Below are positions 3,947 through 60,501 of a DNA stretch of 64,000 bases, piece by piece (positions within the stretch are counted from its first letter, which is position 1; each line of letters starts with the position of its first letter). The notes under the pieces are model-generated. The model worked only from the letters and a program-made list of their open reading frames with translations, was not told where the DNA came from and did not search any database. The translations under genes and the position numbers were made by a program. The stretch is from a virus. The DNA lies in the IMG/VR virus record IMGVR_UViG_3300045988_108377, positions 1 to 64,000 of that record; one strand, given 5' to 3'.

Positions 3947-4297
3947 CTAAAGATGTATATATTCGTTCACTTCACCCAAAACCTTTGTAAGCAGTCTTTT
4001 TAGGATTTTCAATTCATCATTTGAATATGTAGCTATTGGATAACCATCAAGAGTAGTATCACCAGAGTTACGGCTTATCTTTAATGAATATTTGTCCTCT
4101 TTCATTTTTCTTTTTTGAACCTTAACTTCTTTAAAGATTACACCCTTTCCGTCAGAACGGTTAAACTTACAACATCTATGCTTGCACATGCACGTATAAC
4201 CTCCTTCTTGTATATCAAAGAAACAACCTTCGCAATTATTACGTTCCACAGCTTCAAGAGTAATGGTTACTCTTTCTCCAACTTTAAGTTCTTTCAT
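3947..4297 (-). CDS. hypothetical Cys-rich protein
   Basis: 116 aa, ATG at 4295-4297. Cys cluster NNCEGCFFDIQEGGYTCMCKHRCC. Confidence 0.55.
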   Translation of the reverse strand: MKELKVGERVTITLEAVERNNCEGCFFDIQEGGYTCMCKHRCCKFNRSDGKGVIFKEVKVQKRKMKEDKYSLKISRNSGDTTLDGYPIATYSNDELKILKRLLTKVLGEVNEYIHL

Positions 4298-23526: not shown

Positions 23527-24002
23527 ACATCAAACATATTTAATTGTTTATAGTGAACTGGTGGTTTTATGCCGTTGATTGCACCAGCATTTATCATGTT
23601 GGCAAACCACCAGTTCCTACACGTATTAAACTCTTGCTTATTTGCTTGCGGCAATTTCCAATCGATATACTCGTTGGTTATATTGATTCTGCGAGCATTT
23701 TCTATTCTTAGAGTACAAAACTCATCGTCGATATTGATGTTGTGCCCCAATGCTGGAGCAAAGGCTACATGAAGGTTATGAGACCAAATCCAATCCTCAC
23801 ATACCCCACACAAATAGTAAAGTCTGGATTCTTCTAGTTTAAGCTCTCTGTTTGGGTTAAGTGGAGTTCCACCCCATATTCTTCTATCGAACTTACCAAT
23901 CAGACATTTTGTGCAATGCTGACTGAGGTCTATATCTCTGACGAGTTTTAACCAAAGGTACCTATAGTTCCTTTTTGGTTTGAAGTACTTAATTGTTACC
24001 AT
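23523..24002 (-). CDS. hypothetical Cys/His-containing protein
   Basis: 159 aa, the first gene behind cassette B. ATG at 24000-24002. Confidence 0.55.
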   Translation of the reverse strand: MVTIKYFKPKRNYRYLWLKLVRDIDLSQHCTKCLIGKFDRRIWGGTPLNPNRELKLEESRLYYLCGVCEDWIWSHNLHVAFAPALGHNINIDDEFCTLRIENARRINITNEYIDWKLPQANKQEFNTCRNWWFANMINAGAINGIKPPVHYKQLNMFDV

Positions 24003-24107
24003 AATTTCGATAATTTAAAGTAAATATTGCATATTATTTGCACAACAAAGATACTAAAAAATTATCAAATATGCAAACTTTTTGACAATTATTTTTATCA
24101 AAAAAGC
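24003..24107 (-). promoter_or_regulatory. promoter-leader cassette, copy B
   Basis: -7 box TATCTTTG at 24046-24053. GTGCAAATAATATGCAATATTTACTTTAAATTATCGAAATTAT precedes the ATG. The upstream TTTGCATATTTGATAAT block is shared with the other copies. Confidence 0.7.
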
Positions 24108-26894: not shown

Positions 26895-27656
26895 TTAATC
26901 TTTAATTGCGATGATTCCACAAAAATTCAGGTGCTTCCAGAAGGTATCAATCTTTCGAAAACCTGCCATCTTTAACATACTGATGTTCATTTCTTCGGTA
27001 AGAGGGCAGAGCACACCTTCCAGGGACTTACGCTTGCCAGCTATCTGTTCTTCCGTATATTGGTTCTCTCGCTTCATGTCGTAATAGATTGAAGAGAAGA
27101 GTTCACCAATCTCGGCTGAGTTGCCGAGTACTTTTTCCACCAAGATGAAGGCACCGCCATCGTTTAGGCTGTTATAAACACTCTCTATGATTCCTTGGCG
27201 ATACTCTATTGGTATAAACTGCAAGGTGAGGCATGAGAGAATGACAGAGCAACCACCACTAAAACTAAGGTAACCAATTGGGTGCTTAGCGAGGTCTAAA
27301 CCCATGACACGAACATAACCTTCTGAAATCTGTTGTTTGTAGTGTTCACGACATTTTGCAAGCATCGGCTCGCTAACATCATAAAGATAGGAGATAACTT
27401 CTTTCGAATGGTTAGCGATAATGCCTTCTGCCGACAGACCATTGGCGCAACCTAAGTCCACGAACCGAGTGTTTGGCTTGATAAAATGCTCTGCAACATT
27501 ATCCACCAACTTTCGCATGACAGAGTAGTCTGGTATGGAGCGTTCCAACATATCCGTAAAAACGTCGGCTACGTTTTGGTCAAAATCCCAACTACCGGAC
27601 AGATTTCTTATGTCGTCTCGTTTCTTTGCTTCTATATTATTGTTTTGCTGTGCCAT
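26895..27656 (-). CDS. cmoA: CmoA-like carboxy-S-adenosyl-L-methionine (Cx-SAM) synthase homolog
   Basis: 253 aa, colinear by eye with E. coli CmoA (phage vs E. coli):
- WDFDQNVADVFTDMLERSIPDYS vs [23 protein letters not shown]
- VDLGCANG vs YDLGCSLG
- LTLQFIPIEYRQ vs FTLQFLEPSERQ
- GGAFILVEK vs GGALVLSEK
- GKRKSLEGV vs QKRSMLENV
- NFCGIIAIK vs NFGSLVALK. Confidence 0.75.
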   Translation of the reverse strand: MAQQNNNIEAKKRDDIRNLSGSWDFDQNVADVFTDMLERSIPDYSVMRKLVDNVAEHFIKPNTRFVDLGCANGLSAEGIIANHSKEVISYLYDVSEPMLAKCREHYKQQISEGYVRVMGLDLAKHPIGYLSFSGGCSVILSCLTLQFIPIEYRQGIIESVYNSLNDGGAFILVEKVLGNSAEIGELFSSIYYDMKRENQYTEEQIAGKRKSLEGVLCPLTEEMNISMLKMAGFRKIDTFWKHLNFCGIIAIKD

Positions 27657-27662
27657 GATTCT

Positions 27663-28052
27663 TTATTTTATTGTTGCAACCTCAAATCCGAAATAGTCAA
27701 TCAAGGCATACAACACCTTTGCCGACATCTTCCTTTTCTCGTTTACTATTGTCGAAAGTGTGCTACCGCTCACGTTTGTTGTCTTGGCGATAGTTACCAT
27801 TTTCTCCTTGCAATCTTTAAGACATGCCTTCACTTTGTCCTCTATTAGATTGGGTGAGAAGGCTGAATCGTCTTTCTTCCAAGTTAGATTCAAGAGTTCC
27901 ATGACTTTCACGAGATTTTCTGTTGTCAAGTTGCGATTTCCTTTCAAAAATGCATTGAAGTTCTGAACGACCAATCCACATTCCTTACACACCATCGTCT
28001 GATTGACACCCCGATAGTGCATTCTTTCCTCTATAATTTCATTTATCTTCAT
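27663..28052 (-). CDS. tandem double XRE-type HTH regulator
   Basis: 129 aa with two HTH units: NQTMVCKECGLVVQNFNAFLKGNRNL...MELLNL and VTIAKTTNVSGSTLSTIVNEKRKM...IDYFGF. It is the first gene of the cmoA/ParB operon. Confidence 0.7.
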   Translation of the reverse strand: MKINEIIEERMHYRGVNQTMVCKECGLVVQNFNAFLKGNRNLTTENLVKVMELLNLTWKKDDSAFSPNLIEDKVKACLKDCKEKMVTIAKTTNVSGSTLSTIVNEKRKMSAKVLYALIDYFGFEVATIK

Positions 28053-28241
28053 AATTTCGTATTCAAGTGTTTGCCATTAATGACGGCACTATTTATTATT
28101 TGCTTTCTTGTTCGTTTTGCAGAAGTTTGCAATTATGTTGCAAAGATAATCAAAAATACAATTATATACAAGTGTTTGATAAGTATTTTTGCAATTAACC
28201 TCAAAAATCTTTCATTTATCGGTATTTTTTGACTATCTTTG
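28053..28241. promoter_or_regulatory. divergent promoter/operator region (variant cassette C plus a plus-strand promoter)
   Basis: Minus-strand -7 TATCTTTG at 28141-28148, overlapped by the palindrome TTTGCAATTATGTTGCAAA (28126-28144). Further TTTGCA half-sites at 28116, 28187 and 28238. Plus-strand -7 TATCTTTG at 28234-28241. A GCAAATAATAAAT leader motif lies at 28091-28103. Confidence 0.6.
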
Positions 28242-28246
28242 CAGTA

Positions 28247-28372
28247 TTAAATATGAACTTTATTTAATTTTGTGTTCCGCCTAACGGCAGTTCATAATTT
28301 TGAATTTAAAGTGAAAATTTATTATTTGCATAAGAACGAGCTCGTCCGTGAGGATAAGCTCTTCTGTTTTTT
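28247..28372 (+). ncRNA. candidate ~125-nt anti-leader sRNA
   Basis: Bounded by a consensus plus-strand -7 box (28234-28241) and an intrinsic terminator (28333-28372). The longest ORF is 4 codons. Bases 28294-28330 (CATAATTTTGAATTTAAAGTGAAAATTTATTATTTGCA) are the antisense of the shared 5' leader, including its start codon. Confidence 0.4.
28333..28372 (+). terminator. intrinsic terminator (plus strand)
   Basis: Stem AGAA(C)GAGCT (28333-28342) / AGCTCTTCT (28357-28365), 9 bp with one bulge, followed by GTTTTTT (28366-28372). The minus-sense exit has no T run. Confidence 0.6.
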
Positions 28373-28446
28373 ATATGGGTATGGGCTCTATAATTTCTTT
28401 CTGTATCTTCTTCTGATAACATCATAAATGACGGTATCACTTATTA

Positions 28447-28620
28447 TCATACAACCTCCTTCTCTTTTACATCAAATGTAACACTTTCTAACTCGCCATT
28501 CTCCAAAGCACCCAAATCATACAAACGTCTTACGGCATTTTCTGCGCCTTCGGATGATGCTGCGTCAATCGAAACCTTGTAGGTGATTTTCTCTACAATC
28601 TCTACTACATACTTTTTCAT
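28447..28620 (-). CDS. small acidic protein (57 aa)
   Basis: Below the track cutoff. ATG at 28618-28620: MKKYVVEIVEKITYKVSIDAASSEGAENAVRRLYDLGALENGELESVTFDVKEKEVV. TGA at 28447-28449. Confidence 0.45.
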   Translation of the reverse strand: MKKYVVEIVEKITYKVSIDAASSEGAENAVRRLYDLGALENGELESVTFDVKEKEVV

Positions 28621-28645
28621 ATCAAATCATTTCTATCTTATAGTT

Positions 28646-28918
28646 TTATTTTACTTTATCGAGATCACATATTAAAACGTTTCCTACAATGATGTCTTGT
28701 CTACCTGCAGACTGGATAATATTTGTTACGAAGATATTCATAGGAAGACCTAATAATTTCCCTTCTTCATTGACTATTACAAGTCTGTTATCTCCGAGCC
28801 TGATAATCTCAATGTAGCCACCAACAAATCCATTAAGTTCTTCTAAGGAAAAGTCTGTGCCATTGGATGGGGTTACTTTTCTTCGCTCTCCATCCGTAGT
28901 GTAAAGTATTGAATCCAT
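28646..28918 (-). CDS. DUF3846-like protein
   Basis: 90 aa. The pattern ...LEELNGFVGGYIEIIRLGDNRLVIVNEEGKLLGLPMN... resembles the DUF3846 family common in phage/ICE accessory regions. This is from memory and needs a profile check. Confidence 0.5.
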   Translation of the reverse strand: MDSILYTTDGERRKVTPSNGTDFSLEELNGFVGGYIEIIRLGDNRLVIVNEEGKLLGLPMNIFVTNIIQSAGRQDIIVGNVLICDLDKVK

Positions 28919-28991
28919 ATTTTTTTATTATGCTATTTATATTTGAGAATCTTTGTTTCAAAAAAACATCCATGCATCATCTCTATACTTG

Positions 28992-29396
28992 TTAGCTTCC
29001 GTAGCCGGTAAACCTTCCAACTGCGGAACTGACGTTCTCGTTATGTACAGAACCTGGCTTTAGAAAATATTTATAATGTGAACTTCTCTCTAAGTTCTCA
29101 TGCCAACCAAATCCGTAGGCATCAAACTCTTTTCCGCACCATTCATGTGCGTAATAATATTCATTAGCGTGTATCTTCCCTTCTTTATGAAAACAGAAAT
29201 TGTAATAACAGTATTCTGCTGCCATGTCGGATTTGTTAGCCTCATAACGAGAAACTACGTCTTCTCGTTTCTTTTTGTATTCAGCCAACTTCTGCTGATA
29301 CTCTTCTTCCGTGTCGCAAAGATAATAATCTGTATCTGTCCAATGGCTTTCCCAATAGGAATTGGAAGACTGATGTATATGATAAATATTCTTCAT
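28992..29396 (-). CDS. hypothetical protein
   Basis: 134 aa, ATG at 29394-29396 in an ATGA overlap with the upstream small ORF. Rich in Tyr/Trp/His. Confidence 0.55.
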   Translation of the reverse strand: MKNIYHIHQSSNSYWESHWTDTDYYLCDTEEEYQQKLAEYKKKREDVVSRYEANKSDMAAEYCYYNFCFHKEGKIHANEYYYAHEWCGKEFDAYGFGWHENLERSSHYKYFLKPGSVHNENVSSAVGRFTGYGS

Positions 29397-29491
29397 TTCT
29401 TCTCTCCCTCCATCATTAAAAGTTTGTGTTCTTCTTCGCTGTCACCAACATGGCCAAAAGACTTGATAAGATTGAAATTTGAATTTCTCAT
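29393..29491 (-). CDS. very small ORF (32 aa)
   Basis: ATG at 29489-29491 after GGGAACAATT: MRNSNFNLIKSFGHVGDSEEEHKLLMMEGEKK. The longer track version 29393..29581 overlaps a better ORF. Confidence 0.3.
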   Translation of the reverse strand: MRNSNFNLIKSFGHVGDSEEEHKLLMMEGEKK

Positions 29492-29504
29492 AATTGTTCC
29501 CTTT

Positions 29505-30239: not shown

Positions 30240-30677
30240 TTAATCGAAGTCATGTGTTGCAGAAAACACATGCTCATTATATTTTTTAAATATCTCCTCC
30301 GATGAGAAATCACTCCTTTTTAGATTTAAAGGCATGTTTAGTCTCATAAAGGCCTCATAGCTAAAATATGGGAAACAATCTGATATGTCTTCGCATTCAG
30401 GAAGAGGAACGTTCTTCTCGCAGAAGTCAATGAGCTCCAGCTGTTCCTTGCTACCTTCCTCAAAAGCATCCACTATAAAATACTCAGTGCAAGAGTATTT
30501 GTTAGTATCGTAACGCTTCTCGCTGCCAATCTCCTGCAAATGCTTATTTATTATCTCTGCGCATTTAGCGTTATACAGAGCGAAATACTCTTCCTGCATT
30601 GTTTGTAAGGTGCGATACTCTTTTTTGGTTGCTACTTCCTTTGCAATAGCCAACTCATATTCTCTAATCTTGTTCAT
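30240..30677 (-). CDS. hypothetical protein
   Basis: 145 aa, the first gene behind cassette E. Confidence 0.55.
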   Translation of the reverse strand: MNKIREYELAIAKEVATKKEYRTLQTMQEEYFALYNAKCAEIINKHLQEIGSEKRYDTNKYSCTEYFIVDAFEEGSKEQLELIDFCEKNVPLPECEDISDCFPYFSYEAFMRLNMPLNLKRSDFSSEEIFKKYNEHVFSATHDFD

Positions 30678-30795
30678 AATCTTGAATGTTTAAAGTGAAT
30701 GTTATTTGTTTATTATTTACACTACAAAGATAGGTATTTTTCATCAAATATGCAAGTAAATGACAGATTAATTTTATCAGAAACGAAAGATTTTT
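30678..30795 (-). promoter_or_regulatory. promoter-leader cassette, copy E
   Basis: -7 box TATCTTTG at 30725-30732. The leader GTAAATAATAAACAAATAACATTCACTTTAAACATTCAAGATT is followed by the ATG at 30675-30677. Confidence 0.75.
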
Positions 30796-30800
30796 ATGAA

Positions 30801-30840
30801 CAGAAAATGAGGGAGTACACCTTGATAGATGTGCTCCCTC
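30801..30840 (-). terminator. intrinsic terminator (minus strand)
   Basis: Stem GAGGGAG..CAC / GTG..CTCCCTC (30809-30840) followed in minus sense by ATTTTCTG. Confidence 0.55.
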
Positions 30841-31018
30841 TTACGGAACTTTAATTTGTAAATAATAAAACAATCACTCTTGATTATGGCCGTATGTTCC
30901 GTATAAGAAGGAGCTGGCGAAATCAACTTGAAACAATTCTATTAATCATTTAAAGGACATTCCTTAATGCCCCAATTTTAAATTTACTAAAAACATGATG
31001 CCAGCTCCTTTATGTCTA

Positions 31019-31699: not shown

Positions 31700-32002
31700 T
31701 TAATTCTCCTTTACTCCGTAAATGTTATTCTTCTTGAAACTCTCCTCTTCATCCTTTGATACGAGGGAAATAATAACGGTGTCGTAAGTGTTATATAATG
31801 GAATATCGCCAACTTTCGTTACCTTTATCAAAAGGAATTCTGTGCGATGACGGCAAGTCATTTGAACCTTATAGCCTGCATTGTTGGCTCTTTCCATAAG
31901 GCTTTCGAAAGAACAACTTTGTTTTACAAACGGCTTTTTGTTCCATGAAGTATAAACAACCTTGTTGCTAACCTTTGCTGAATTTGAATTATTTGTTGCC
32001 AT
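31700..32002 (-). CDS. hypothetical protein
   Basis: 100 aa, the first gene behind cassette F. Confidence 0.55.
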   Translation of the reverse strand: MATNNSNSAKVSNKVVYTSWNKKPFVKQSCSFESLMERANNAGYKVQMTCRHRTEFLLIKVTKVGDIPLYNTYDTVIISLVSKDEEESFKKNNIYGVKEN

Positions 32003-32117
32003 AATCTTGAAAGTTTAAAGTATTATTGTTTATTATTTACATTACAAAGATACAAACAACTTATCAAATACGCAAATTTCTTGCAAGATATTTTAGTCAA
32101 AAATGAAAGTTTTTTTG
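32003..32117 (-). promoter_or_regulatory. promoter-leader cassette, copy F
   Basis: -7 box TATCTTTG at 32045-32052. Leader GTAAATAATAAACAATAATACTTTAAACTTTCAAGATT + ATG. Confidence 0.75.
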
Positions 32118-32178: not shown

Positions 32179-33801
32179 TTACTTCTGTGTCTTGAGCGTT
32201 TCGATGTATTTTTCCATTTCAGCTGTTTTCTTGGCGCATACATCCATCGCTTTTTGGGTAATCTCTCCAAGATCGTTCGGGAATTGCTTCTCCATTAACA
32301 TGCCGAGCATTCCTGCCAAGTCATGTGAGTAACACACAGACCTCTCTGATAGAATCGCCTTGATAAACTCTCGTTTGATAGAATTGCGGTTCTTCTCGAT
32401 GATAGCAACGTTCTTTTTGAATGAGGTTTCTGTGTTCTCCCATTCCATACCGATTTCTTTCTTGAAGGCCTGTGGAACAAACTTCATGAGGACAGCATGG
32501 AATATCTTTGTCTCGTCTGCTGACAATGGAGTGTTGAGTTTTGAGTACTCGCTCTTGGCTAAAGTCTCACGGTAGCCTTCGGTAATTTCCTGTCTGGCTT
32601 GCTCCTTGTAGCGTTGAATCATTGTCTTGCTCTCGCTAATTTTAGCCTTTTTGTCGATGGCAGTCTTTATCTCTTCTTCTGAGGCTCCTTTTGGTGCCAT
32701 GAAAGAATACTTAATTTCTCCAGAAAGTTTGCCACTGAAACATACCTCATAAACCTTTTCTGTTGTACCATCTGCCAAGTTGCTATCAAAGACCGCCTTT
32801 GCCTTGTCGTAGTTATCCTTGCGAACTCTGTAGTTTTCCTCATCAGAGAACTTTGTCTTGTCTGGCTCTACTAAAGGGTACACGTAGCTTCGCTTGGTAT
32901 AATCCTTCAATTCGATACCGGCATCATGCGCTGCCTTGATGATGTCTTCGCAGCCGTCACCCTTGTAGATACATGGCAGACCGCTCCGCTTTGCCTCACG
33001 GAAGATGAACTCTTGGGTTTTCTTATTGAAACATGATGGGTTCATGCAGCGGTCACGGCCCTCGTTGTATTCCTCAGGCTTGTTCTTTGTGTTGAGAGGA
33101 CAGCCCTCACAGTTCTTGCCACATGAGAAACTTTCGTCGAGCAACGAAAAACGTGCAGTATCAAGATACTTCATCACGCACTCATCAATCCATTCGTGAA
33201 GTACGTCCATAGGAAGAATCTTTCTCGTCCAACGTTCAATACACTCTGGTGTGAACTTCTCCATGTAGAGGGTTTCTTGTTGTCCCTTTGTGAGCTTGCA
33301 AATATCCAGAAGGTGGACAAGGTAAAGCGTTCCATTTCGCATCAGGTCAATATAACCTTGTGTGATGTTAGAGAGATTGATTCGGCTGATAACGTATGAG
33401 GAAGACTTACCAAGCATTTTGGCAATTTCCTTCACCTTCATGGTTTTGTCTTTCGTGAGCTTCGAGAATGCGGCTGCTTCCTCAATAGGGTCTACGTCTT
33501 TTCGTTGTAAGTTCTCGATAATCATGGCTGCAAACGCTTGCTTGTCGTCGAGATCCGTGCGCACGATGGCTTGAATTTCTTCCATTCCTGCGAGCAATGA
33601 TGCTCGGTATCTGCGCTCTCCGCATACGATTTCATATTTCTTACCACTCTCTTTTGGAGCCTTACGGATGGTGATAGGCTGTATCAGACCGTTCTCCTTG
33701 ATGTTATCAGCTAATTCCTTAAGGCTTTCCTGGTCGAAAGTCTTACGTGGGTTCAACGAACTTGGGCAAATGTCTGCCAACGAAATAGTCTTTACTTGCA
33801 T
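32179..33801 (-). CDS. parB: ParB family protein (canonical GERR type) with a long C-terminal extension
   Basis: 540 aa. LADICPSSLNPRKTFDQESLKELADNIKENGLIQPITIR...IVCGERRYRASLLAG, then an HTH-like KVKEIAKMLGKSSSYVISR. No ParA gene is adjacent. Confidence 0.75.
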   Translation of the reverse strand: MQVKTISLADICPSSLNPRKTFDQESLKELADNIKENGLIQPITIRKAPKESGKKYEIVCGERRYRASLLAGMEEIQAIVRTDLDDKQAFAAMIIENLQRKDVDPIEEAAAFSKLTKDKTMKVKEIAKMLGKSSSYVISRINLSNITQGYIDLMRNGTLYLVHLLDICKLTKGQQETLYMEKFTPECIERWTRKILPMDVLHEWIDECVMKYLDTARFSLLDESFSCGKNCEGCPLNTKNKPEEYNEGRDRCMNPSCFNKKTQEFIFREAKRSGLPCIYKGDGCEDIIKAAHDAGIELKDYTKRSYVYPLVEPDKTKFSDEENYRVRKDNYDKAKAVFDSNLADGTTEKVYEVCFSGKLSGEIKYSFMAPKGASEEEIKTAIDKKAKISESKTMIQRYKEQARQEITEGYRETLAKSEYSKLNTPLSADETKIFHAVLMKFVPQAFKKEIGMEWENTETSFKKNVAIIEKNRNSIKREFIKAILSERSVCYSHDLAGMLGMLMEKQFPNDLGEITQKAMDVCAKKTAEMEKYIETLKTQK

Positions 33802-33915
33802 AATCTTTTGAATTTAAAAGTGAATGTTTATTTATTATTTGCACTACAAAGATACAAAGTATTTATCAAATACGCAAACTTTTTGGCATTTATTTTATAC
33901 TATATGAATGTTTTT
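33802..33915 (-). promoter_or_regulatory. promoter-leader cassette, copy G
   Basis: -7 box TATCTTTG at 33847-33854. Leader GTGCAAATAATAAATAAACATTCACTTTTAAATTCAAAAGATT + ATG. Confidence 0.75.
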
Positions 33916-34858: not shown

Positions 34859-35134
34859 TTAATATGCGTATTGTGTCTGCATGAACACTCTCATTAACTC
34901 ATCTTGCTCTTCAAAGTAGCAATACATGTCATAATTTGATATTGCATCATCTACACCAGAAGCCTCTGAATCTATCAAGGCATATTTCTTTTCAAGCTTT
35001 TCTACTGCCTCCCAAGTCTCCTTGCAAGGATGCTCCTTCAAATCATGCTCAGCCCCCTGTAAGTCTTGGTTCAGCAACTCCATTGCTTTCTGCAACTCAA
35101 TCTTTCTTTTCTTTAAATAACTTAATGGTCTCAT
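34859..35134 (-). CDS. hypothetical protein
   Basis: 91 aa, the first gene behind cassette H. Confidence 0.5.
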   Translation of the reverse strand: MRPLSYLKKRKIELQKAMELLNQDLQGAEHDLKEHPCKETWEAVEKLEKKYALIDSEASGVDDAISNYDMYCYFEEQDELMRVFMQTQYAY

Positions 35135-35246
35135 AATCTGTGAATTTAAAGTGAATGTTTATCTTATTATTTACATTACAAAGTTAAGCATTTTTCATCA
35201 AATACGCAAATATTTGAGCAATTATTTTTATCAGATATGAAAGATT
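35135..35246 (-). promoter_or_regulatory. promoter-leader cassette, copy H
   Basis: -7 box TAACTTTG at 35179-35186. Leader GTAAATAATAAGATAAACATTCACTTTAAATTCACAGATT + ATG. Confidence 0.7.
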
Positions 35247-35867: not shown

Positions 35868-36284
35868 TTATTTAAATTCGTGACTATTACAATTATCTAT
35901 ATCATTCATGGATACTCTGAGTAGCTCACAATACCCAGGCTCATCGCCAAAGAGACAGTTGCCACATCTTTTCGTAATTACACCGGCTTCAACTTCCATC
36001 TTAAAGTAATCTCTCCTTGTAATGTGATGTTTACCTGCCTCTTTCAGAACAGTCAAAGCAAACTCTTCGTTCGCTACTTCCAAGGCTTTTAGGGTGTTGA
36101 GGTCAACGTTGCAATTCTCGTCTGCTACACAAAGAGGAATATACCCCTCATGAGGGAAGTTTGTGCGACCGATATTCCAAACGATGTAGCCATAAGGAAA
36201 GTCTGGTACAATCTCAAAGGTATGGATGGTTCCCCATCCGTTGTCATCTACGAATTTTTCCATATCAAGTGATATTGTGTTCAT
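35868..36284 (-). CDS. hypothetical protein
   Basis: 138 aa, the first gene behind cassette I. C-terminal Cys cluster CGNCLFGDEPGYC...C. Confidence 0.55.
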   Translation of the reverse strand: MNTISLDMEKFVDDNGWGTIHTFEIVPDFPYGYIVWNIGRTNFPHEGYIPLCVADENCNVDLNTLKALEVANEEFALTVLKEAGKHHITRRDYFKMEVEAGVITKRCGNCLFGDEPGYCELLRVSMNDIDNCNSHEFK

Positions 36285-36402
36285 AATCTTTAATGTTTAA
36301 AAGTGAATGTTATGTTTATTATTTACAATACAAAGATACAAACAATTTATCAAATATGCAAGTTTTTAGGTGTATTTTTTTATCAAAAATGAAAGTTTTT
36401 TT
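36285..36402 (-). promoter_or_regulatory. promoter-leader cassette, copy I
   Basis: -7 box TATCTTTG at 36331-36338. The upstream half is almost identical to copy A (AAAAACTTGCATATTTGATAAATTGTTTG). Confidence 0.75.
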
Positions 36403-36628: not shown

Positions 36629-37006
36629 CTATATTTCAAGCCCCTTAATCTTTTCCATGAAACGGGCATTGTCTTTTTCAGCCCATTTGTTTTCAACACG
36701 ATAGATGATTTTACCAATATCTGTGCCGTTCCCTCCGTTATCCCATGTGGTATAACGATACTCCAAACTTACTATAAAATCAACGGAATCTTCTTTTTCG
36801 TTGACAACCGACTTGACAATACCTTCTATATGAATATTCTTAAATATCATAGGCTGCATAAAGAAGTTGCTGCCTGTAATCTTGATGTATTCCTCGTTTC
36901 TGTAATCTTTAGCTACTCCGAGGGTAAACTGGCAATTAACACCAAGTCTAAGCATTTTAGACTGAACATCATTTACGATAGCGTTTAAAATATTCTGATA
37001 CTTCAT
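36629..37006 (-). CDS. hypothetical protein
   Basis: I prefer the ATG at 37004-37006 (MKYQNILNAIV...), preceded by a leader-only copy (GCAAATAATAAATCATTTTTAAATTCAAAGATT). Confidence 0.55.
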   Translation of the reverse strand: MKYQNILNAIVNDVQSKMLRLGVNCQFTLGVAKDYRNEEYIKITGSNFFMQPMIFKNIHIEGIVKSVVNEKEDSVDFIVSLEYRYTTWDNGGNGTDIGKIIYRVENKWAEKDNARFMEKIKGLEI

Positions 37007-37053
37007 AATCTTTGAATTTAAAAATGATTTATTATTTGCTTTTTTCTCTTGTT

Positions 37054-37215
37054 TTAGATTTCTACCATCATGCCGTTCTCGTATTTGCAAACAACGAAAG
37101 CGTCTGTATTGTTTACCTTGTTACACTTTGCAGCAAGTTTATTAATTTTTGCTTTGTCAGCTAAGCCTTTTACAGGCTTACTGCTTCCTTTTTTTACTAC
37201 ATAAAACATTTCCAT
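37054..37215 (-). CDS. small basic protein (53 aa)
   Basis: Below the track cutoff. The first gene behind cassette K: MEMFYVVKKGSSKPVKGLADKAKINKLAAKCNKVNNTDAFVVCKYENGMMVEI. Confidence 0.45.
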   Translation of the reverse strand: MEMFYVVKKGSSKPVKGLADKAKINKLAAKCNKVNNTDAFVVCKYENGMMVEI

Positions 37216-37328
37216 AATCTTGAAAGTTTAAAGTATTATTGTTTATTATTTACAATACAAAGATACAAACAATTTATCAAATACGCAAGTTTTTAAGCAA
37301 TTATTTTATCAAAATTTGAAGTTTTTAC
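37216..37328 (-). promoter_or_regulatory. promoter-leader cassette, copy K
   Basis: -7 box TATCTTTG at 37258-37265. The leader is identical to copy F over GTAAATAATAAACAATAATACTTTAAACTTTCAAGATT. Confidence 0.75.
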
Positions 37329-37397: not shown

Positions 37398-38141
37398 TTA
37401 TTTCAGGCTTTGCCTTCGATACTTACTGAATACCCAACGAGCTAAAACGCTCGCCAGTATGACAAGTGCAATCCCTAAAAAGGTGAGAGCGATGTAAAGT
37501 GTCTGCTTGGATTCGGACACGGATTGTTTCTTGTCGGTTGAACGTTTTGTTTCTTTTCTCTTGTTCGTGGTCGCAGACGATGAGCTTTCGGAATTTGTAT
37601 TGTTTTCCTCTTTCTCGTTGGCAACCACTGTTGAAGCTTTATTTGTCATTTCCTTTTGCGCAGACGATGTTGAGGCTCCACGCTTCTCTATCTTCGTCTG
37701 CCTGATGGTCTTACTTACCTTTGGCTTGGCATCCTTGGCAGTATCGCTTGTGTCGTAGATGGTTGTTTCAGTAATAGTGACGGTCTCACTATTCTCTGAA
37801 GACTCATTCTTTTGCTCTGTGGTCGTGCTGACGGAATCGGTTGCGGACTTAGCCTTGTCTGACGATGTGGTGGAGTTAGTTTGCTCCGACGTATCTATTT
37901 GGGTCTGTTCCGTCTCGTTCTCGTTGACCTGCTCTGAGGACATTTGCTTGCTACTTCCACAAGATACAAGAATGATGATTGTGAACCATGCTATGCAGGA
38001 AAGCACAAATACGGATAGCACACCATGGTAACCTCCAAGAAAGCTCATAATGTTATGCGTTCCGAAACGTGATGCTCCGGACTCCTGGCTACTTCGCTCC
38101 ATACGTAGGGCTTTGAATAACTTGTTTATGACTTTTTCCAT
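37398..38141 (-). CDS. membrane-anchored Ser/Thr/Glu/Asn-rich low-complexity protein
   Basis: 247 aa. Hydrophobic segment 40-60 ends in ILVSCGSS (possible lipobox). A ~150-aa S/T/E/N/K-rich region and a C-terminal TM (LYIALTFLGIALVILASVLA) follow. It is the last gene of the operon, after luxS. Confidence 0.6.
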   Translation of the reverse strand: MEKVINKLFKALRMERSSQESGASRFGTHNIMSFLGGYHGVLSVFVLSCIAWFTIIILVSCGSSKQMSSEQVNENETEQTQIDTSEQTNSTTSSDKAKSATDSVSTTTEQKNESSENSETVTITETTIYDTSDTAKDAKPKVSKTIRQTKIEKRGASTSSAQKEMTNKASTVVANEKEENNTNSESSSSATTNKRKETKRSTDKKQSVSESKQTLYIALTFLGIALVILASVLARWVFSKYRRQSLK

Positions 38142-42572: not shown

Positions 42573-42975
42573 TTTGTTGTTTTCTTTTCAAAGTATCTTT
42601 GTAACTTTCTAACACTTCCAAAAGTCTGTTTAGAGAGTAAGAGGCAAAGGACTTTTCCCATCCTTTTACGCTATAGTATTTGACGTTGTAACCAGATAGA
42701 CTTAACAACTCTTTGTTTGTCTTGTGCAGTTCTTCTGTCGCCTTTGTTCTGATGGTAAGGACTACGCAGAAAATTGCCGATAACAAATCGTTTGTCAACT
42801 TGTCTTCATCAAGTTTCAACGAACCGTTGTACGCATCTATCTTGTTGTTCCATGTTGTAATTCTCGTGATGGTATCGTTATTAACTTTGATAGGTTCCTT
42901 TGCTCCAAATACGAACTGCTGGTCTTTACCTACCAACTTAACTACGGCTTGCTCGTAATCATATTCCTTTTCCAT
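42556..42975 (-). CDS. hypothetical protein
   Basis: I prefer the ATG at 42973-42975 (MEKEYDYEQAVVKL...) directly behind cassette L. The track start at 43065 lies in the cassette. Confidence 0.55.
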   Translation of the reverse strand: MEKEYDYEQAVVKLVGKDQQFVFGAKEPIKVNNDTITRITTWNNKIDAYNGSLKLDEDKLTNDLLSAIFCVVLTIRTKATEELHKTNKELLSLSGYNVKYYSVKGWEKSFASYSLNRLLEVLESYKDTLKRKQQNEENK

Positions 42976-43084
42976 AATCTTTGTATTTTTAAAGTGAATG
43001 TTATGTTTATTATTTACATTACAAAGATACAAACAACTTATCAAATACGCAAATGTTTTGAGCAATTATTTTTGTAAATTTGCA
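42976..43084 (-). promoter_or_regulatory. promoter-leader cassette, copy L
   Basis: -7 box TATCTTTG at 43022-43029. Leader GTAAATAATAAACATAACATTCACTTTAAAAATACAAAGATT + ATG. It abuts the stop of 43085..43918. Confidence 0.75.
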
Positions 43085-45987: not shown

Positions 45988-46170
45988 TCAGGGCTGTCGA
46001 TTGTACAGAAGGATTGCTCTGCCATGTTTCTGATAATATTCTTCACGCTCTTTCTTTTCGGTACAATTTAGATTTTTAAGAAAGACATCTGTACCTCTAA
46101 CCAAATCATGCAATTTTGTTCCTTGTGGCTTTCCTCTAAGGATAGCCGGAATTTCTGTTGTTTCATTCAT
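45988..46170 (-). CDS. small protein with KPQGTKL motif
   Basis: 60 aa, the first gene behind cassette M. IPAILRGKPQGTKLHDL resembles the N-terminus of 5165..6148. Confidence 0.5.
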   Translation of the reverse strand: MNETTEIPAILRGKPQGTKLHDLVRGTDVFLKNLNCTEKKEREEYYQKHGRAILLYNRQP

Positions 46171-46262
46171 AACTTGCTGAATTTAAGTGATTTATTATTA
46201 TTTGCACTGCACAAAGATAAGAAAAAGTTATCAAATACGCAAATTATTTTGCAATATTTTTA
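46171..46262 (-). promoter_or_regulatory. promoter-leader cassette, copy M (overlaps the 3' end of the upstream CDS)
   Basis: -7 box TATCTTTG at 46212-46219. It shares the subtype sequence GATAACTTTTTCTTATCTTTG with the switch-region copy at 56285-56320. Confidence 0.7.
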
Positions 46263-54379: not shown

Positions 54380-55307
54380 ACTTCTTTGTATTTTTGTTGA
54401 ACTTCAAGCCAAGCTCCTTGCATCTGTCTGTGATGAGCGACTTCGCATGAGCGTTGGAATCCCATATCTGCTTCTTGTCTTTCATTGACAATACGTAAGA
54501 GTTTGCCTGCTCAGCATCGCTGATACAAGCCACCTCGCCCTCAATCTCTGAAATCAGCTCATCGTATTCCTTACGAGTGTTTGACTCTTGCTTCAAGTAG
54601 CTGTCGTAATTCTCAAAGATATTCGACATAAAATCATTATGGCCGATAATCTTGCCTTGGGCATCGATAATTACTGGAATCTCTTGCATAGGTGGCAAAT
54701 TGCAAGTATTCTTTGCGTAGAACTTTTCTTGTGGTGTCCATGAGATAGTTCTCTTGTTGCCAATAGCTTGCATGTAGCCTACCAAATCCAGCTCTTTGAT
54801 GAGGTCGCCTGCAGATGAACCACCAATCTCGGGACGAACAATGCGAATGTCTCCATCCTTTTCTTCACGCTCATGGGCAACGAAGATTACGTGTTTGCCC
54901 ATCATCGAAACTCGCTTTAAAAAGTTGATGAACATAATCTTTCTTGCTCCGAATCCCTGCAAGGTTAAAGAACCGTCACGCTTGCCAAGACGATTGTCTT
55001 GCTGAATGATGTATGTGCTCATGTAGTCAAGCATCTTTCCTGCTGTATCAATAACGATAGTCATGAAATCGTTTGATTGTGTTTCCAACTCTTGTAAGGC
55101 CTGTAACACCTCGTTCCAATTCTGTACTTGAAGCGTTGGACATTGAAATGCTCCATTTACTCGTTGGATGCCTCCGTCAAAGTCAAAAAGTACCGGATTC
55201 GGGGTGCTAAGTGCAAGGGTGCTCTTGCCCAAGCCAGGTTGACCATACACCAATGCCTTAATTGTGGAGTTATAAGCCAACTCCGAAGGCTTCTTAAACA
55301 TGCTCAT
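54366..55307 (-). CDS. RecA-fold ATPase (AAA_24 / Sak4-like)
   Basis: 313 aa. Walker A VYGQPGLGKST and Walker B TIVIDTAG. Behind a leader-only cassette copy (GCAAATAATAAATTTCAAAACGACAATTAAATTACAAGATT). Confidence 0.6.
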   Translation of the reverse strand: MSMFKKPSELAYNSTIKALVYGQPGLGKSTLALSTPNPVLFDFDGGIQRVNGAFQCPTLQVQNWNEVLQALQELETQSNDFMTIVIDTAGKMLDYMSTYIIQQDNRLGKRDGSLTLQGFGARKIMFINFLKRVSMMGKHVIFVAHEREEKDGDIRIVRPEIGGSSAGDLIKELDLVGYMQAIGNKRTISWTPQEKFYAKNTCNLPPMQEIPVIIDAQGKIIGHNDFMSNIFENYDSYLKQESNTRKEYDELISEIEGEVACISDAEQANSYVLSMKDKKQIWDSNAHAKSLITDRCKELGLKFNKNTKKYEAA

Positions 55308-55430
55308 AATCTTGTAATTTAATTGTCGTTTTGAAATTTATTATTTGCAATCTTTTTTGGCGAATAAAATCGCCCTTAAATCTCGTAAGAGATAGCTTTC
55401 CGATGGCTCAAACTTGACGTTTTTGTCGTT

Positions 55431-55689: not shown

Positions 55690-55923
55690 TCATTTTAAGA
55701 TAGCTTTCAAGCCAAGCTCTCTGATGTTTTCTAAATCGAACACGGAACCTACGAATTTGGCGACCATATAAAGAACCAACTCTTGTTGGGAGGATATTCC
55801 TAACTTCTTGTATATGTGTTTCTTATGTGTCCGTATAGTCCAAATCGGTTTGCTCAATCTTTCTGCCACCTCCTTGTCTATAAACCCATGGCAGTAAAGT
55901 TCAGCTACTTTATGTTCTACCAT
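55690..55923 (-). CDS. LuxR/GerE-type HTH transcriptional regulator (DNA-binding domain only)
   Basis: 77 aa. DKEVAERLSKPIWTIRTHKKHIYKKLGISSQQELV fits the GerE HTH pattern. No receiver or autoinducer domain. Confidence 0.6.
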   Translation of the reverse strand: MVEHKVAELYCHGFIDKEVAERLSKPIWTIRTHKKHIYKKLGISSQQELVLYMVAKFVGSVFDLENIRELGLKAILK

Positions 55924-56143: not shown

Positions 56144-56426
56144 TTCTCTATTTTTTGTTAAACTTTGCCCCCTAAAGGGGGCCGACTTGTAATAATCTAG
56201 CCTAAATCATCTTTTTGTTACTTTTAGGTACGTTAAAAATTTGCATAAGAACGAATAATTTTGTAATTTTGTTGTTGTTGTTATTATTTGACATTGCAAA
56301 GATAAGAAAAAGTTATCATTTGTGCAAGTTTTTAAGGAGAAAATTTTATATTTTTGATAAAAAAGTTGTAAAACGGAACGCTGATAAGTGGTTCTTGTTG
56401 GTATTCACATTATTATATATAGAATT
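56144..56426. promoter_or_regulatory. divergent genetic-switch region (variant cassette P and the repressor promoter)
   Basis: Minus-strand -7 TATCTTTG at 56297-56304 with leader CAAATAATAACAACAACAAC... and the GC hairpin GCCCCC-TAAA-GGGGGC (56167-56182). Plus-strand -7 TATTTTTG at 56349-56356, followed by a leader ending AGAATT + ATG at 56427. Confidence 0.6.
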
Positions 56427-56888
56427 ATGAACGAAGGAACTAATAAGTATAACGTGCGTGAGATAATCGCTAACGTGCTGCAAGCGGTTGGAATGAACGG
56501 ACCTGGATTTGCCAAAGCCATAGGTCTTCCATATACCGTGGTTTATAATTTGCAAAGTGGTAGGACGAAGAAGTTCAGACCAGCTATAGCTAACCCAATG
56601 GTCAAGGCTTTCCCACGACTTAATTTGGAATACCTATATACTGGTGACGGTGAAGTACTAAAAGATGAGGTTCCTTCTGAAACAGAACGTGTCTCTAAAT
56701 TTGCCGGTTCATTGGATAATGTTGTGGAACTTCAAAAGAAGATTTTCGATAAACTAGATGAACTTAGCAAAAAGGAAAAAGAACTGAACGAAATGGAAAG
56801 AAGACTCAACTTAAAAGAACTTGAACTAATAAAACGAGAAAGTGAGTGTCAATTACGGGAAAGTAAGCTTGGTATTCAAAAAGTATAG
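56427..56888 (+). CDS. CI-like repressor (N-terminal HTH, C-terminal coiled coil)
   Basis: I prefer the ATG at 56427. MNEGTNKYNVREIIANVLQAVGMNGPGFAKAIGLPYTVVYNLQSGRTKK...LNLEYLYTGDGEV. The LEYLxTGxG signature is typical of phage repressors. On the plus strand next to the integrase. Confidence 0.65.
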   Translation: MNEGTNKYNVREIIANVLQAVGMNGPGFAKAIGLPYTVVYNLQSGRTKKFRPAIANPMVKAFPRLNLEYLYTGDGEVLKDEVPSETERVSKFAGSLDNVVELQKKIFDKLDELSKKEKELNEMERRLNLKELELIKRESECQLRESKLGIQKV

Positions 56889-56934
56889 TCTGATATATCA
56901 CATTGAGTTTTTTATTGCCTTTTACGAACCGATT

Positions 56935-57160
56935 TGTTGTCGGAGTAAATCTTAAAGATGAGTAACTAACAGAAAACAAGAGTATTATATATAGATGAAG
57001 AAGAATACGATAGTTCACTTTGGTTTTATTTCAAAAAGCTTTGTGGTTAGTTAAAACTTTGATATATAACTTGTTATATAAATATGGGTCATTCAAAAGT
57101 AGATACGAAACTGTTGTCGGAATACTTGCGAATGGCTCGTAACAAACCGAAAAGTTGTCG
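56935..57160. promoter_or_regulatory. direct repeats and a palindrome upstream of int (candidate arm sites/attP or int regulatory region)
   Basis: TGTTGTCGGAGTA (56935-56947), TGTTGTCGGAATA (57112-57124) and GTTGTCG (57154-57160). Perfect palindrome TATATAAC-TT-GTTATATA (57063-57080). Confidence 0.3.
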
Positions 57161-57163
57161 CAA

Positions 57164-58393
57164 ATGAATCTGAGAGTTGTCATACTTCCTGCTAAGGTCT
57201 TGACGGACGGAAGTCATAAAGTTAGAATTGCAATTTCACACAGAGGTAACACAAGATACTTTGTTACCAGATTTACCGTGCCATCGGAGAAAAACTTGGT
57301 TAATGGCAATGTCGTTGGAATACCGAATGCCGCATACATCAACAACCAAATCAGACTGAAACTAAATAAAATCTATAATGCCTTCGACTCCCTGGAGGAA
57401 TCTGATTATTATACGTGTTCTCAGTTGGTAACTATGATTGAGGAAAAGATTTCCGGCACCAAACCAATGACGCTTCATCAGCTTGGAGTGGAATATATCA
57501 AAGTGAGGCGTTCTGTGGTAGCTGATGGTACAGTCTATATATACGAGCGAGGAATGGCAGAAATTGACTCGTTCTTTGGCACAGACTTTATCCTTCCTAA
57601 ACTTAAGGTTACTGATGTAAGTGCTTTCAAGGAATACTTGTCGAAAAAGCTTAATCCAACGACAACCAACTTAAGATTGCGTGTTCTAAACATGATTGTT
57701 ACCTATGCTGTTAGGCACAATTATGTCAAGTATGATGTATCTCCGTTTACCGATGTGCCATTGCCTCACGGAAACGTTAGAAACTGCGCAATATCAATCG
57801 AACAATTACGTGTTGTAAGAGATATGGAGTTCTCAAATTCTCGTCTTGATGTTTGCCTTTCTTTTGTTAGAGACATCTTTATGCTTTCGTTCTATCTGTG
57901 TGGTATGAACTTAGCGGATATTCTCTCTATGGATTTACGTAAAGACTCTGTTTCGTTTGTCAGACAGAAGACTAAGAACAGAAAAACTGACGGGGTTAAG
58001 ACTGAATTTACGATTCAGCCCGAGGCGAGAAAAATCCTTGATAGATTACTTGACAAAGACGGAAATATTGTATTCAAAGGAAAGAAAATGAGATACGACC
58101 CTATATCATGTTTGTTCTCCCGTAACTTTTCTGAGATTGCAGTAAGATGCGGAATTGAAACTCAATTCATATTCTATTCGGCCCGCAAGACTTTTGCACA
58201 AATCGCAAATGAGCTTATGGTAAAAGACTCCATCATAGAATATTGTATAGGTGACACTGTTACTTCTAGTAAAAAGATAATTGGCTACTATATTTCTGTT
58301 AACCAACGTATGGCAGACAAGGCAATACGAAAAATTTTTGATGCCGTTGCCTCTGACAAAAGTATAGAAGAACTTGTTGAGGATGCCATATAA
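57164..58393 (+). CDS. int: tyrosine recombinase/integrase (Bacteroides phage type)
   Basis: I prefer the ATG at 57164, since the track start at 57155 is TTG. It has an N-terminal arm-binding-like domain (MNLRVVILPAKVLTDGSHKVRIAISHRGNTRYF) and a SAM-like core (LHQLGVEYIK...). The C-terminal catalytic region includes ARKTFAQ and a terminal GYY. Confidence 0.8.
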   Translation: MNLRVVILPAKVLTDGSHKVRIAISHRGNTRYFVTRFTVPSEKNLVNGNVVGIPNAAYINNQIRLKLNKIYNAFDSLEESDYYTCSQLVTMIEEKISGTKPMTLHQLGVEYIKVRRSVVADGTVYIYERGMAEIDSFFGTDFILPKLKVTDVSAFKEYLSKKLNPTTTNLRLRVLNMIVTYAVRHNYVKYDVSPFTDVPLPHGNVRNCAISIEQLRVVRDMEFSNSRLDVCLSFVRDIFMLSFYLCGMNLADILSMDLRKDSVSFVRQKTKNRKTDGVKTEFTIQPEARKILDRLLDKDGNIVFKGKKMRYDPISCLFSRNFSEIAVRCGIETQFIFYSARKTFAQIANELMVKDSIIEYCIGDTVTSSKKIIGYYISVNQRMADKAIRKIFDAVASDKSIEELVEDAI

Positions 58394-59853: not shown

Positions 59854-60273
59854 CTATTTGTTGTACTTATTCATTCCCTCAATCAAATAGCTTAGTTCAT
59901 CATCCGATAACTCTAGCTTTGCATCAAACTTAGTGTTGATGATAAACTTCTTATCGAATTGGTTCTCCAATGTCTTATAGATATCGTCTACGCACATTTC
60001 ATTCTCAACAATAAGCTTCTTTCCGAACTCTTCCATTTCAATCTTATGGGTAGCGTTCAACTTCTCCATCTCTGCTTTATGAGCAGCTTCCATTTCAGAA
60101 ACCTGCTTTTTCAAAGCCTGTATTTGGGAATTGAATTGGCAAGCCATCTCTATAGGAAAATCATTCTTGATATTCTCACACATCTGGTCGATGTCGTGAT
60201 TGTTGAAGAACTCACTGAAGTACGTGTCACCTTTCAATGACTGCAAAGTCTTAATTTCTGTTTGCTTATCCAT
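59854..60273 (-). CDS. hypothetical coiled-coil protein
   Basis: 139 aa, the first gene behind cassette O. Confidence 0.55.
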   Translation of the reverse strand: MDKQTEIKTLQSLKGDTYFSEFFNNHDIDQMCENIKNDFPIEMACQFNSQIQALKKQVSEMEAAHKAEMEKLNATHKIEMEEFGKKLIVENEMCVDDIYKTLENQFDKKFIINTKFDAKLELSDDELSYLIEGMNKYNK

Positions 60274-60392
60274 AATTTTGAATGTTTAAGATGAATATTA
60301 TTTGTTTATTATTTACACTACAAAGGTATGTATTTTTCATCAAATACGCAAGTTAATAACAGATTATTTTTATCAGAAACGAAAGATTTTTT
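60274..60392 (-). promoter_or_regulatory. promoter-leader cassette, copy O
   Basis: -7 box TACCTTTG at 60321-60328. The leader GTAAATAATAAACAAATAATATTCATCTTAAACATTCAAAATT + ATG is the same subtype as copy E. Confidence 0.75.
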
Positions 60393-60394
60393 AT

Positions 60395-60432
60395 AAGAAA
60401 AATCCGTATTATCTTCGCAGACAACACGGATT
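60395..60432 (-). terminator. intrinsic terminator (minus strand)
   Basis: Stem AATCCGT (60401-60407) / ACGGATT (60426-60432), 18-nt loop, followed in minus sense by TTTTCTTAT. Confidence 0.6.
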
Positions 60433-60496: not shown

Positions 60497-60501
60497 TGAT
60501 G

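Follow-up and report, generated by a model that had tools for sequence, protein, structure and literature searches.

A candidate trans-acting small RNA complementary to the leader shared by most operons of a putative temperate phage of Bacteroidota

Results

The DNA analysed in this work, hereafter the window, comprises bases 1 to 64,000 of the viral record IMGVR_UViG_3300045988_108377, which has a length of 89,213 bp and direct terminal repeats. On its plus strand, the window carries a short unit, delimited by a promoter and an intrinsic terminator (28246-28372), that is very likely a non-coding RNA gene and that includes the reverse complement of a leader found in front of most operons of the phage. 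An initial annotation of the window had proposed this unit as a candidate trans-acting anti-leader RNA. Our analysis supports this proposal by the presence of the unit in related phages, the retention of its fold, the match between its anti-leader and the leaders of each phage and its synteny with a helix-turn-helix (HTH) regulator gene, and we consider that the unit probably encodes an RNA that targets the shared leader in trans. The strongest result, which comes from sequence comparison, is that the predicted anti-leader matches the leader family of its own clade.

Reiterated promoter-leader cassettes

The window appears to derive from a phage that infects Bacteroidota of the gut or rumen. 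The presence of an integrase gene in the window and the classification of a relative (G002) as a provirus indicate that this phage is temperate. Almost all genes of the window are located on the minus strand. Their promoters are of the Bacteroidota type, whose consensus consists of TTTG at -33 and TAnnTTTG at -7, with a G at -5 (PMC6847099). A near-identical cassette made of such a promoter and of a leader (...AAAAACTTGCRTATTTGATAA-N8-TATCTTTG-tag-TGYAAATAATAAA-cataacattCACTTTAAAcATTCAAAGATTATG) heads at least 13 operons, and additional copies of the leader alone, devoid of promoter, precede internal genes. Overall, the leader word is found 18 times, compared to 0.5 expected. Leader copies are also present upstream of a terminase gene in a relative, which makes the "early" label initially given to the leader-bearing transcripts uncertain.

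Promoter, terminator and lack of coding potential of the unit

The unit is composed of the following features:
28204-28213, plus strand: -33 region of the small-RNA promoter, AAAAATCTTTC here and AAAAACTTG in relatives
28234-28241, plus strand: -7 box of the small-RNA promoter, TATCTTTG, of the Bacteroidota TAnnTTTG type
28246-28372, plus strand: predicted small RNA of about 127 nt, between the -7 box and a hairpin followed by T6
28248-28321, plus strand: hairpin 1; its 5′ arm is variable, its apical stem-loop GC-rich and its 3′ arm invariant (part of the anti-leader)
28294-28330, plus strand: anti-leader, reverse complement of the whole leader, from CAT (anti-AUG) to the 5′ word
28318-28332, plus strand: seed UUUAUUAUUUGCA and single-stranded linker between the hairpins (mean unpaired probability of 0.66 for the seed and of about 0.9 for 28322-28332)
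28333-28372, plus strand: intrinsic terminator, with a hairpin (28333-28365) followed by T6 (28367-28372)

The promoter elements reported by the initial annotation, a -7 box and a TTTC located 20 nt upstream, are both present, TTTC being found at 28210-28213 on the plus strand and separated from the -7 box by a 20-nt spacer. In relatives, AAAAACTTG lies 20 nt upstream of the -7 box, in the same arrangement as in the operon cassettes, and the -7 box reads TATC, TAAC or TACC followed by TTTG, i.e., only the two free positions of TAnnTTTG vary. The upstream half of the small-RNA promoter is similar to that of the cassette promoters, but the small-RNA start site, placed at A28246 by the G(-5) rule of the -7 box (PMC6847099), does not carry the leader word. 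Since TATCTTTG occurs five times on the plus strand of the window, the four other copies lying inside minus-strand genes, the -7 box alone is not significant.

The plus-strand terminator is also present, but its stem consists of 13 pairs with two 1-nt bulges, capped by a GUGA tetraloop, and not of the 9 bp initially described; a generic terminator scan missed it because of these bulges. Similarly, the claim that no open reading frame (ORF) exceeds four codons holds for ATG frames, the only one in the unit being ATG AAC TTT ATT TAA at 28253 (four codons), but not for a GTG-started frame of 51 codons (28272-28427, plus strand) that crosses the unit. This frame is not considered as coding because it extends past the terminator and because +1/-1 indels interrupt it in relatives. 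On the minus strand, the mini-ORF located behind the leader copy has four codons in the window and about 11, 16 and 20 codons of unrelated sequences in relatives (counted by eye on aligned sequences). Because the length of this mini-ORF varies and indels break the plus-strand frame, no conserved peptide is encoded on either strand; the 51-codon frame, a 44-codon minus-strand frame (28306-28440) and the mini-ORF were all rejected as coding sequences owing to indels, other lengths or loss in relatives. A type I toxin-antitoxin pair was also rejected, no conserved small toxin ORF being found opposite the RNA or next to it. With its own promoter, its Rho-independent terminator and an accessible seed with distant predicted targets, the unit shows these three attributes of a canonical intergenic trans-acting small RNA.

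Complementarity to the leaders

The segment 28294-28330 is the exact reverse complement of TGCAAATAATAAAttttCACTTTAAATTCAAAATTATG, which is followed by AAC TGC CGT TAG on the minus strand. This confirms the initial description of an exact antisense to a promoterless leader copy, no TAnnTTTG box being found upstream of this orphan copy on the minus strand. The anti-leader is located in the linker and in the 3′ arm of the long hairpin. Its UUUAUUAUUUGC would pair with the first 12 nt of the cassette mRNAs, GYAAAUAAUAAA (predicted to start at G according to the G(-5) rule), and the G of UUUAUUAUUUGC faces the single variable position of the word (C or U) and can pair with either base. The search for 13-nt seed matches (G-U pairs allowed) on the mRNA-sense strand of the genome retrieved 19 sites compared to 1.7 expected: 16 are leader-family words (orphan copy included) and three are G-U-rich coding sequences. 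The energies calculated by RNAduplex for the full-length RNA against the leaders range from -27 to -38 kcal/mol, and from -8 to -20 kcal/mol once opening costs are taken into account. The predicted targets in the window include:
28050-28104, minus strand: leader of the HTH gene, AGCAAATAATAAA...ATG
30675-30721, minus strand: promoter-borne leader of the operon ending beside the small-RNA gene
32000-32041, minus strand: predicted target leader
33799-33843, minus strand: predicted target leader
35132-35175, minus strand: predicted target leader
36282-36327, minus strand: predicted target leader
37004-37040, minus strand: leader-only copy inside an operon
37213-37254, minus strand: predicted target leader
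42973-43018, minus strand: predicted target leader
46168-46206, minus strand: predicted target leader
55305-55349, minus strand: leader-only copy
60271-60317, minus strand: predicted target leader
24000-24042, minus strand: predicted target leader with the variant word TGCAAATAATATG

The anti-leader follows the leader family of each clade

Relatives were gathered by using the neighbouring HTH protein, exact patterns and a covariance-model search of cassette-bearing records. Clades A and B correspond to eight distinct close variants, whose HTH proteins are 92% to 60% identical to that of the window; clades C and D include more diverged homologues. The leader words and the corresponding small-RNA sequences are as follows:
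Clade A (G000, G001): leader word GYAAATAATAAA; small RNA TTTATTATTTGC
Clade B (G002, G003): leader word GYAAATAAAAA; small RNA TTTTTTATTTGC
Clade C (G008-G017): leader word GCAAATAAGATA(AATA), 21-26 per genome; small RNA TATTTATCTTATTTGCA
Clade D (G020): leader word GYAAATAAGATA...CTTCAAAACT; small RNA CATAGTTTTGAAGGTATTTATCTTATTTGCA
Clades C and D jointly: leaders GCAAATAAGATAAATA; small RNA TATTTATCTTATTTGC

In clade A, the small RNA shows matches of 12-13 nt to all leaders of its own genome. In clade B (G002), AAATAAAAA is found in 13 of the 14 leader words and the small RNA carries the matching T-to-A change; the leader of the HTH gene reads TGCAGATAAAAAA in this clade, which also fits the clade B small RNA. 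The small RNA of clade C differs not only in its seed but also in its block facing the AUG and the translation initiation region (TIR), i.e., the anti-AUG (anti-TIR) block is diverged as well. For at least eight leaders of a clade C genome, the complement can be aligned with the anti-leader of that genome along about 50 nt, with 78-88% identity. In clade D, the small RNA likewise follows the leaders. On average, the longest helix reaches 12-15 nt with own leaders compared to 7-9 nt between the A/B and C/D groups, the contrast between clades A and B being only of about 1 nt. In most clade C cassettes (L092 and L150 of G008, e.g., G008:9630-9707 and 37446-37523), the word GCAAATAAGATA is present twice, the two copies being about 66 nt apart.

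An alternative explanation is that the leader word is an operator, or another promoter-proximal DNA site, bound by a phage repressor, or that the unit is an inert, inverted partial copy of a mobile terminator-promoter-leader cassette homogenised by gene conversion, any RNA made from it having no function in trans. Homogenisation can indeed produce a match between anti-leader and leaders; the cassettes are repeated modules similar to PeSL cassettes, other inverted leader copies exist (30857+), the apex of the small-RNA terminator (CGUCCGUGAGGAUA) is also found in an operon terminator and the clade C word flanks most promoters, at about -66 and +1. However, leader-only copies lie at a fixed distance before internal ATGs, which argues for a leader acting at the RNA level, and the orphan copy keeps the whole leader of about 45-50 nt and not the word alone. 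It also keeps orphan-specific differences, and therefore was not simply homogenised. Furthermore, a promoter, strand-specific G-U pairing, compensatory changes and a conservation boundary at the T-run would not be expected for a DNA site or a remnant. We therefore regard this explanation as improbable.

Conservation of the unit among related phages

The unit was found in all related records that span the region, and in five of the five records that contain the cassettes and have a completeness of at least 90%. A first look with the covariance model missed it in G013 and G015, where BLAST found it with 97% identity. Loss or scrambling of the region in relatives that keep the cassettes, an objection raised by the initial annotation itself, was not what we observed: these relatives retain the unit with its promoter, fold and terminator. 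High conservation starts at the promoter and stops a few bases past the T-run in L017, L020 and L021, and the flanks diverge while the unit stays conserved. Between clades A and B, the identity is 61% for the 5′ arm, 96% for the anti-leader and 100% for the terminator, compared to 60% (amino acids) for the HTH protein. In these two clades, the anti-leader is invariant save one substitution and one indel.

These values bear on another explanation, according to which the RNA would be a cis-antisense insulator having as sole partner the read-through transcript of the upstream minus-strand operon (30721 to 28447). Duplex formation with RNase III-type cleavage, or the collision of convergent transcription, would then uncouple this operon from the HTH-CmoA-ParB operon, the likeness to the leaders being only historical. 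In favour of this explanation, relatives keep the convergent layout, a good terminator of the upstream operon is lacking on the minus strand (where the hairpin is followed by UCUUAUGC) and the perfect duplex would reach -80 to -99 kcal/mol, far stronger than any leader pairing. Yet a cis partner is complementary regardless of the sequence, whereas the anti-leader is far more conserved than the 5′ arm; moreover, the anti-leader fits the leader family of each clade, and the retention of a whole leader with its anti-AUG would be left unexplained. Insulation as the sole function thus seems unlikely to us, but it is possible as an additional role.

The match to the covariance model spans 28246-28372. 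Diverged homologues (28-40 bits) were detected in clades C and D (G008-G012, G014, G017 and G020), each of them having a TAnnTTTG box, a long hairpin that differs in sequence, a linker and a terminator whose lower stem covaries. In the model-fitted alignment, 87% of the cells are paired, compared to 70% in shuffled alignments (none of 500 attaining 87%) and 35-48% with slid partners. Changes on both sides of a pair (compensatory changes) affect 21 of the 36 base pairs across clades, including nine of the 13 pairs of the terminator. An alignment of the close variants by MAFFT only revealed no compensatory pair, because the 3′ arm and the terminator are invariant within clades A and B.

The lack of any expression, i.e., fortuitous motifs whose conservation would result from the recent recombination of a mosaic block among close phages, was also envisaged. 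The occurrence by chance of five TATCTTTG boxes on the plus strand and the origin of most IMG/VR relatives from a single metagenome (3300045988) would fit with it. However, homologues are also present in ENA assemblies and in another IMG/VR sample, and the promoter, fold and terminator are kept, with compensatory changes, between clades whose HTH proteins differ by 40-64%. This explanation is thus highly improbable.

Beyond these relatives, megablast of positions 27000-29500 against GenBank phages gave no match, and the scan of bacterial genome contigs with the 20-nt core of the terminator gave only two chance matches, in metagenome-assembled genomes of Acidiferrales and Longimicrobiales. One contig, L018, was considered as a relative lacking the unit and was rejected, as the junction with a fragment resembling a TonB-dependent receptor lies at the contig end and is a remnant or a chimera. 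At this junction (L018:70-1089, OQVQ01000416.1), the phage HTH leader and gene are fused in frame to an N-terminus resembling that of a TonB-dependent receptor; a prophage remnant or an assembly chimera would account for it, and it hints at a Bacteroidota host.

Fold and accessibility of the anti-leader

The predicted small RNA has a minimum free energy of -33.1 kcal/mol (z = -4.8) and a three-part fold common to all close variants: a long hairpin, a single-stranded linker of about 11 nt and the terminator hairpin. In eight of the eight variants, the plus-strand RNA is more stable than its complement (-33 to -38.5 versus -22 to -30 kcal/mol, with a gap of 4.5-15), an excess that typifies selection for G-U pairs on a single strand. 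Furthermore, in each variant, the native 5′ arm outperforms shuffled arms in pairing with the invariant 3′ arm (z from -2.8 to -4.5). The linker is predicted to be unpaired with a probability of about 0.9 in clades A to C.

Neighbouring genes and other elements of the window

The surroundings of the small-RNA gene include the following features:
27663-28052, minus strand: double-HTH regulator gene (Pfam HTH_26 and HTH_3), divergent neighbour of the small-RNA gene in clades A, B and D
28141-28148, minus strand: -7 box of the promoter of the divergent HTH-CmoA-ParB operon
L165:247-1338, minus strand: gene encoding a DAHP synthase-chorismate mutase fusion (DAHP_synth_1 and CM_2), which heads the operon divergent from the small RNA in clade C
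56388-58393 (56.4-58.4 kb), plus strand: lysogeny module, encoding a 166-amino acid protein followed by a 412-amino acid tyrosine integrase

The small-RNA gene is divergent from the HTH regulator promoter, as initially annotated, and clade D shows this arrangement relative to the HTH-CmoA operon too, in spite of an HTH protein identity of only 36%. On its other side, the unit faces the end of the upstream operon in a convergent orientation; the last gene of this operon (28447-28620) encodes a DpnD/PcfM-like protein. In clade C, the DAHP synthase-chorismate mutase gene sits between the small RNA and the HTH homologue; prephenate from this enzyme could feed the phage CmoA, a carboxy-SAM synthase. 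A different gene is found at this position in G013 and G015.

The small-RNA gene shares the plus strand with little besides the integrase module. The integrase shows the domains Arm-DNA-bind_5 and Phage_int_SAM_5 and a weak catalytic domain, and the 166-amino acid protein (56388-56888) has an HTH-like N-terminus and gave no match in Pfam. This module is divergent from a variant cassette located at 56304, which drives a gene encoding a GerE/LuxR-type regulator (55690-55923).

A sequence TTTGATAA(G/A) is found at 28177-28185 (plus strand), about 50-57 nt upstream of the -7 box of the small RNA, and also at two positions of every cassette promoter; a similar sequence, TTTTGATAAC, is located upstream of the small-RNA promoter in clade C. 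This type of element is a possible regulator site common to the small-RNA and cassette promoters.

A second promoter-to-terminator unit of about 105 nt, without ORF, is located at 60396-60509 on the minus strand, with TATCTTTG at 60502-60509 and a terminator made of AATCCGT...ACGGATT followed by TTTTCTT. It holds GAATTTAAATGTGAATAC, a near-complement of the leader core ATTCACTTTAAATTC, and has a syntenic counterpart in G002 (4035-4131), with the -7 box TACCTTTG and a compensatory AU-to-UA change in the terminator stem. At 30800-30917 (minus strand), the 3′ untranslated region of the operon starting at 32041 contains an inverted leader, CATAATCAAGAGTGATTGTTTTATTATTTACA, which is exposed in the loop closed by a 7-bp stem (ACGGAAC/GTTCCGT) and lies ahead of a terminator (GGGAGCAC...GTACTCCC plus TCATTTTCTGTT). 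This element, a possible third anti-leader RNA, is kept in relatives from clade A (L019 and G001), and the inverted leader word is absent from G002. Concerning terminators, an operon terminator of clade C (L092, about G008:37560-37600, minus strand) has the apex CGTCCGTGAGGATA of the small-RNA terminator of the window; since it is reused in an operon terminator of these phages, this apex is not specific to the small RNA.

Discussion

Weight of the evidence

Several observations weigh against a trans-acting anti-leader RNA. The genome background of duplex energies has a mean of -21.4 kcal/mol and a 1% quantile of -33.8 kcal/mol, and the leaders overlap its tail. The calculation of pairing energies against every leader, put forward as a check by the initial annotation, thus fails to separate leaders from background when the full-length RNA is used; because of this overlap, the case rests on the exposed stretch of 12-17 nt and on the comparison between phages. 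The agreement between anti-leaders and leaders corresponds to only two or three independent evolutionary events and could also result from gene conversion among leader copies. The covariation comes only from between-clade comparison, with an alignment that leans to the model and few clade-level events. In clade D, the predicted fold hides the seed in pairing, and in the window the -33 element is weak (TTTC). In clade C, one word of each pair is located at about -66, after the upstream terminator, and the other at +1; these paired words look like operators flanking the promoter and hint at a role at the DNA level. Finally, the effect could be repression or protection, and the role could be linked to lysogeny or to timing. 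Taking these points into account, we still favour, with moderate confidence, a trans-acting RNA that targets the leader shared by most operons.

Proposed mechanism

In the mechanism that we propose, the host RNA polymerase would transcribe the small RNA from the TAnnTTTG promoter and halt at the intrinsic terminator. The exposed UUAUUUGCA(UA) end would then nucleate on the first 12-13 nt of mRNAs starting with GYAAAUAAUAAA, and leader-only copies within operons would be paired likewise. Pairing could spread as far as the AUG, across the CACUUUAAA and AUUCAAA blocks, and displace the 5′ arm of the hairpin, in a toehold mechanism that would engage the free linker first and then extend the duplex toward the AUG. 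Bacteroidota have neither Shine-Dalgarno sites nor Hfq (see also PMC6847099), and their translation initiation needs an unstructured, A-rich region. Since their mRNAs depend on such a region, the duplex would block initiation; it would probably also open the mRNA to double-strand RNases, at 15 sites or more at once. The RNA may thereby provide the lytic operons with a second lock, at the post-transcriptional level, or serve as a dampener or timer, a role suggested by the position of its gene, divergent from the HTH regulator gene and on a strand shared with little but the integrase module.

More tentatively, and with considerable doubt, the small RNA and the leader words could constitute an RNA "immunity code" defining immunity groups of temperate Bacteroidales phages. 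In such a code, the RNA made by a prophage from its lysogeny-side strand, beside its HTH regulator, would silence post-transcriptionally the leader-bearing operons of the phage itself and of incoming phages with the same word. The word would have two readers, a repressor at the DNA level and the small RNA at the RNA level, and the seed/leader pairs AAUAAUAAA, AAUAAAAAA and AAUAAGAUAAAUA would make 15-25 leaders per genome change in concert. The elements located at 60396-60509 and 30800-30917 would make it a small network and not a single RNA.

Comparison with known systems

Among the phage antisense RNAs, c4 of P1/P7 has an exposed-base sequence that sets its specificity, as in heteroimmunity (PMC12197685). 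Like c4, which is encoded in immI of P1/P7, the RNA of the window would be a structured phage RNA whose exposed bases pair with an initiation region and block translation, and complementarity of exposed bases to a phage initiation region, with a specificity that differs between clades A, B and C/D, is found here as for c4. However, c4 is excised from its own target transcript and controls one operon (icd-ant), whereas the predicted RNA has its own promoter and terminator and at least 15 leaders as candidate targets. A processing of c4 type from a target transcript upstream of an antirepressor gene was rejected, as no ant-like gene adjoins the unit, and the Rfam C4 model gave no match at E values up to 10 in 28100-28500. 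The RNAs sar of P22 and OOP of lambda are also short promoter-to-terminator antisense RNAs, which repress a phage gene by pairing at its start or close to it (PMC12197685). Both are encoded in cis opposite a single target, whereas in the window the cis partner is an orphan leader without gene, the presumed targets being elsewhere. The CI RNA of P4 is an immunity factor that recognises repeated complementary sequences in leader transcripts; it terminates transcription prematurely inside a single operon, from whose leader it is processed. Compared to it, the small RNA of the window has far more, and more widely spread, predicted targets.

Outside phages, the Bacteroides RNAs GibS, BTnc201 and BTnc231 (about 100-150 nt) have their own TAnnTTTG promoter, a terminator and a seed between hairpins (PMC7366714). 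They share this architecture with the RNA of the window, but they are chromosomal and regulate host metabolism. Membership in the Rfam family RF04180 (BTnc231) was rejected: the score is 22.5 bits for a gathering threshold of 80.4 (E values of 0.017-0.065) and the likeness mainly concerns the terminator and the CGUGAG loop. This weak, sub-threshold likeness, the accessible AU-rich linker of a structured RNA and the fact that many known prophage small RNAs target host genes (PMC12197685) could point to a host-directed, DicF-like RNA whose complementarity to the leaders would be a by-product of its cassette origin. However, the match to BTnc231 involves mostly a generic terminator with a GNRA loop, and the seed changes between clades along with the leaders of the phage itself, whereas a conserved host target predicts otherwise. 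A host-directed RNA is therefore very unlikely.

On the target side, the leaders correspond to the reiterated words found before many phage genes, such as the PeSL cassettes of T4-type phages and the start-associated sequences of cluster K mycobacteriophages. We know of no matching antisense RNA for either of them. Our literature searches found no description of a system associating a shared leader and an anti-leader small RNA, nor of any small RNA encoded by phages of the Bacteroidota, a phylum dominant in the gut.

Significance

The antisense RNAs known so far from phages (c4, sar, OOP and P4 CI) each govern one gene or operon. The new aspects of the system proposed here are the 15-25 tagged operon or gene starts as predicted targets, the concerted change of tag and RNA, and the phylum. 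If the proposal is true, a single phage RNA would address a sequence tag carried by most operons of the phage, and tag and RNA would change together between related phages. The masking of an unstructured 5′ leader could stop translation in a phylum devoid of Shine-Dalgarno sites and of Hfq. Matched seed/leader pairs could also serve as orthogonal regulators for the engineering of Bacteroides. Overall, the reiterated promoter-leader cassettes of these phages would gain a testable purpose.

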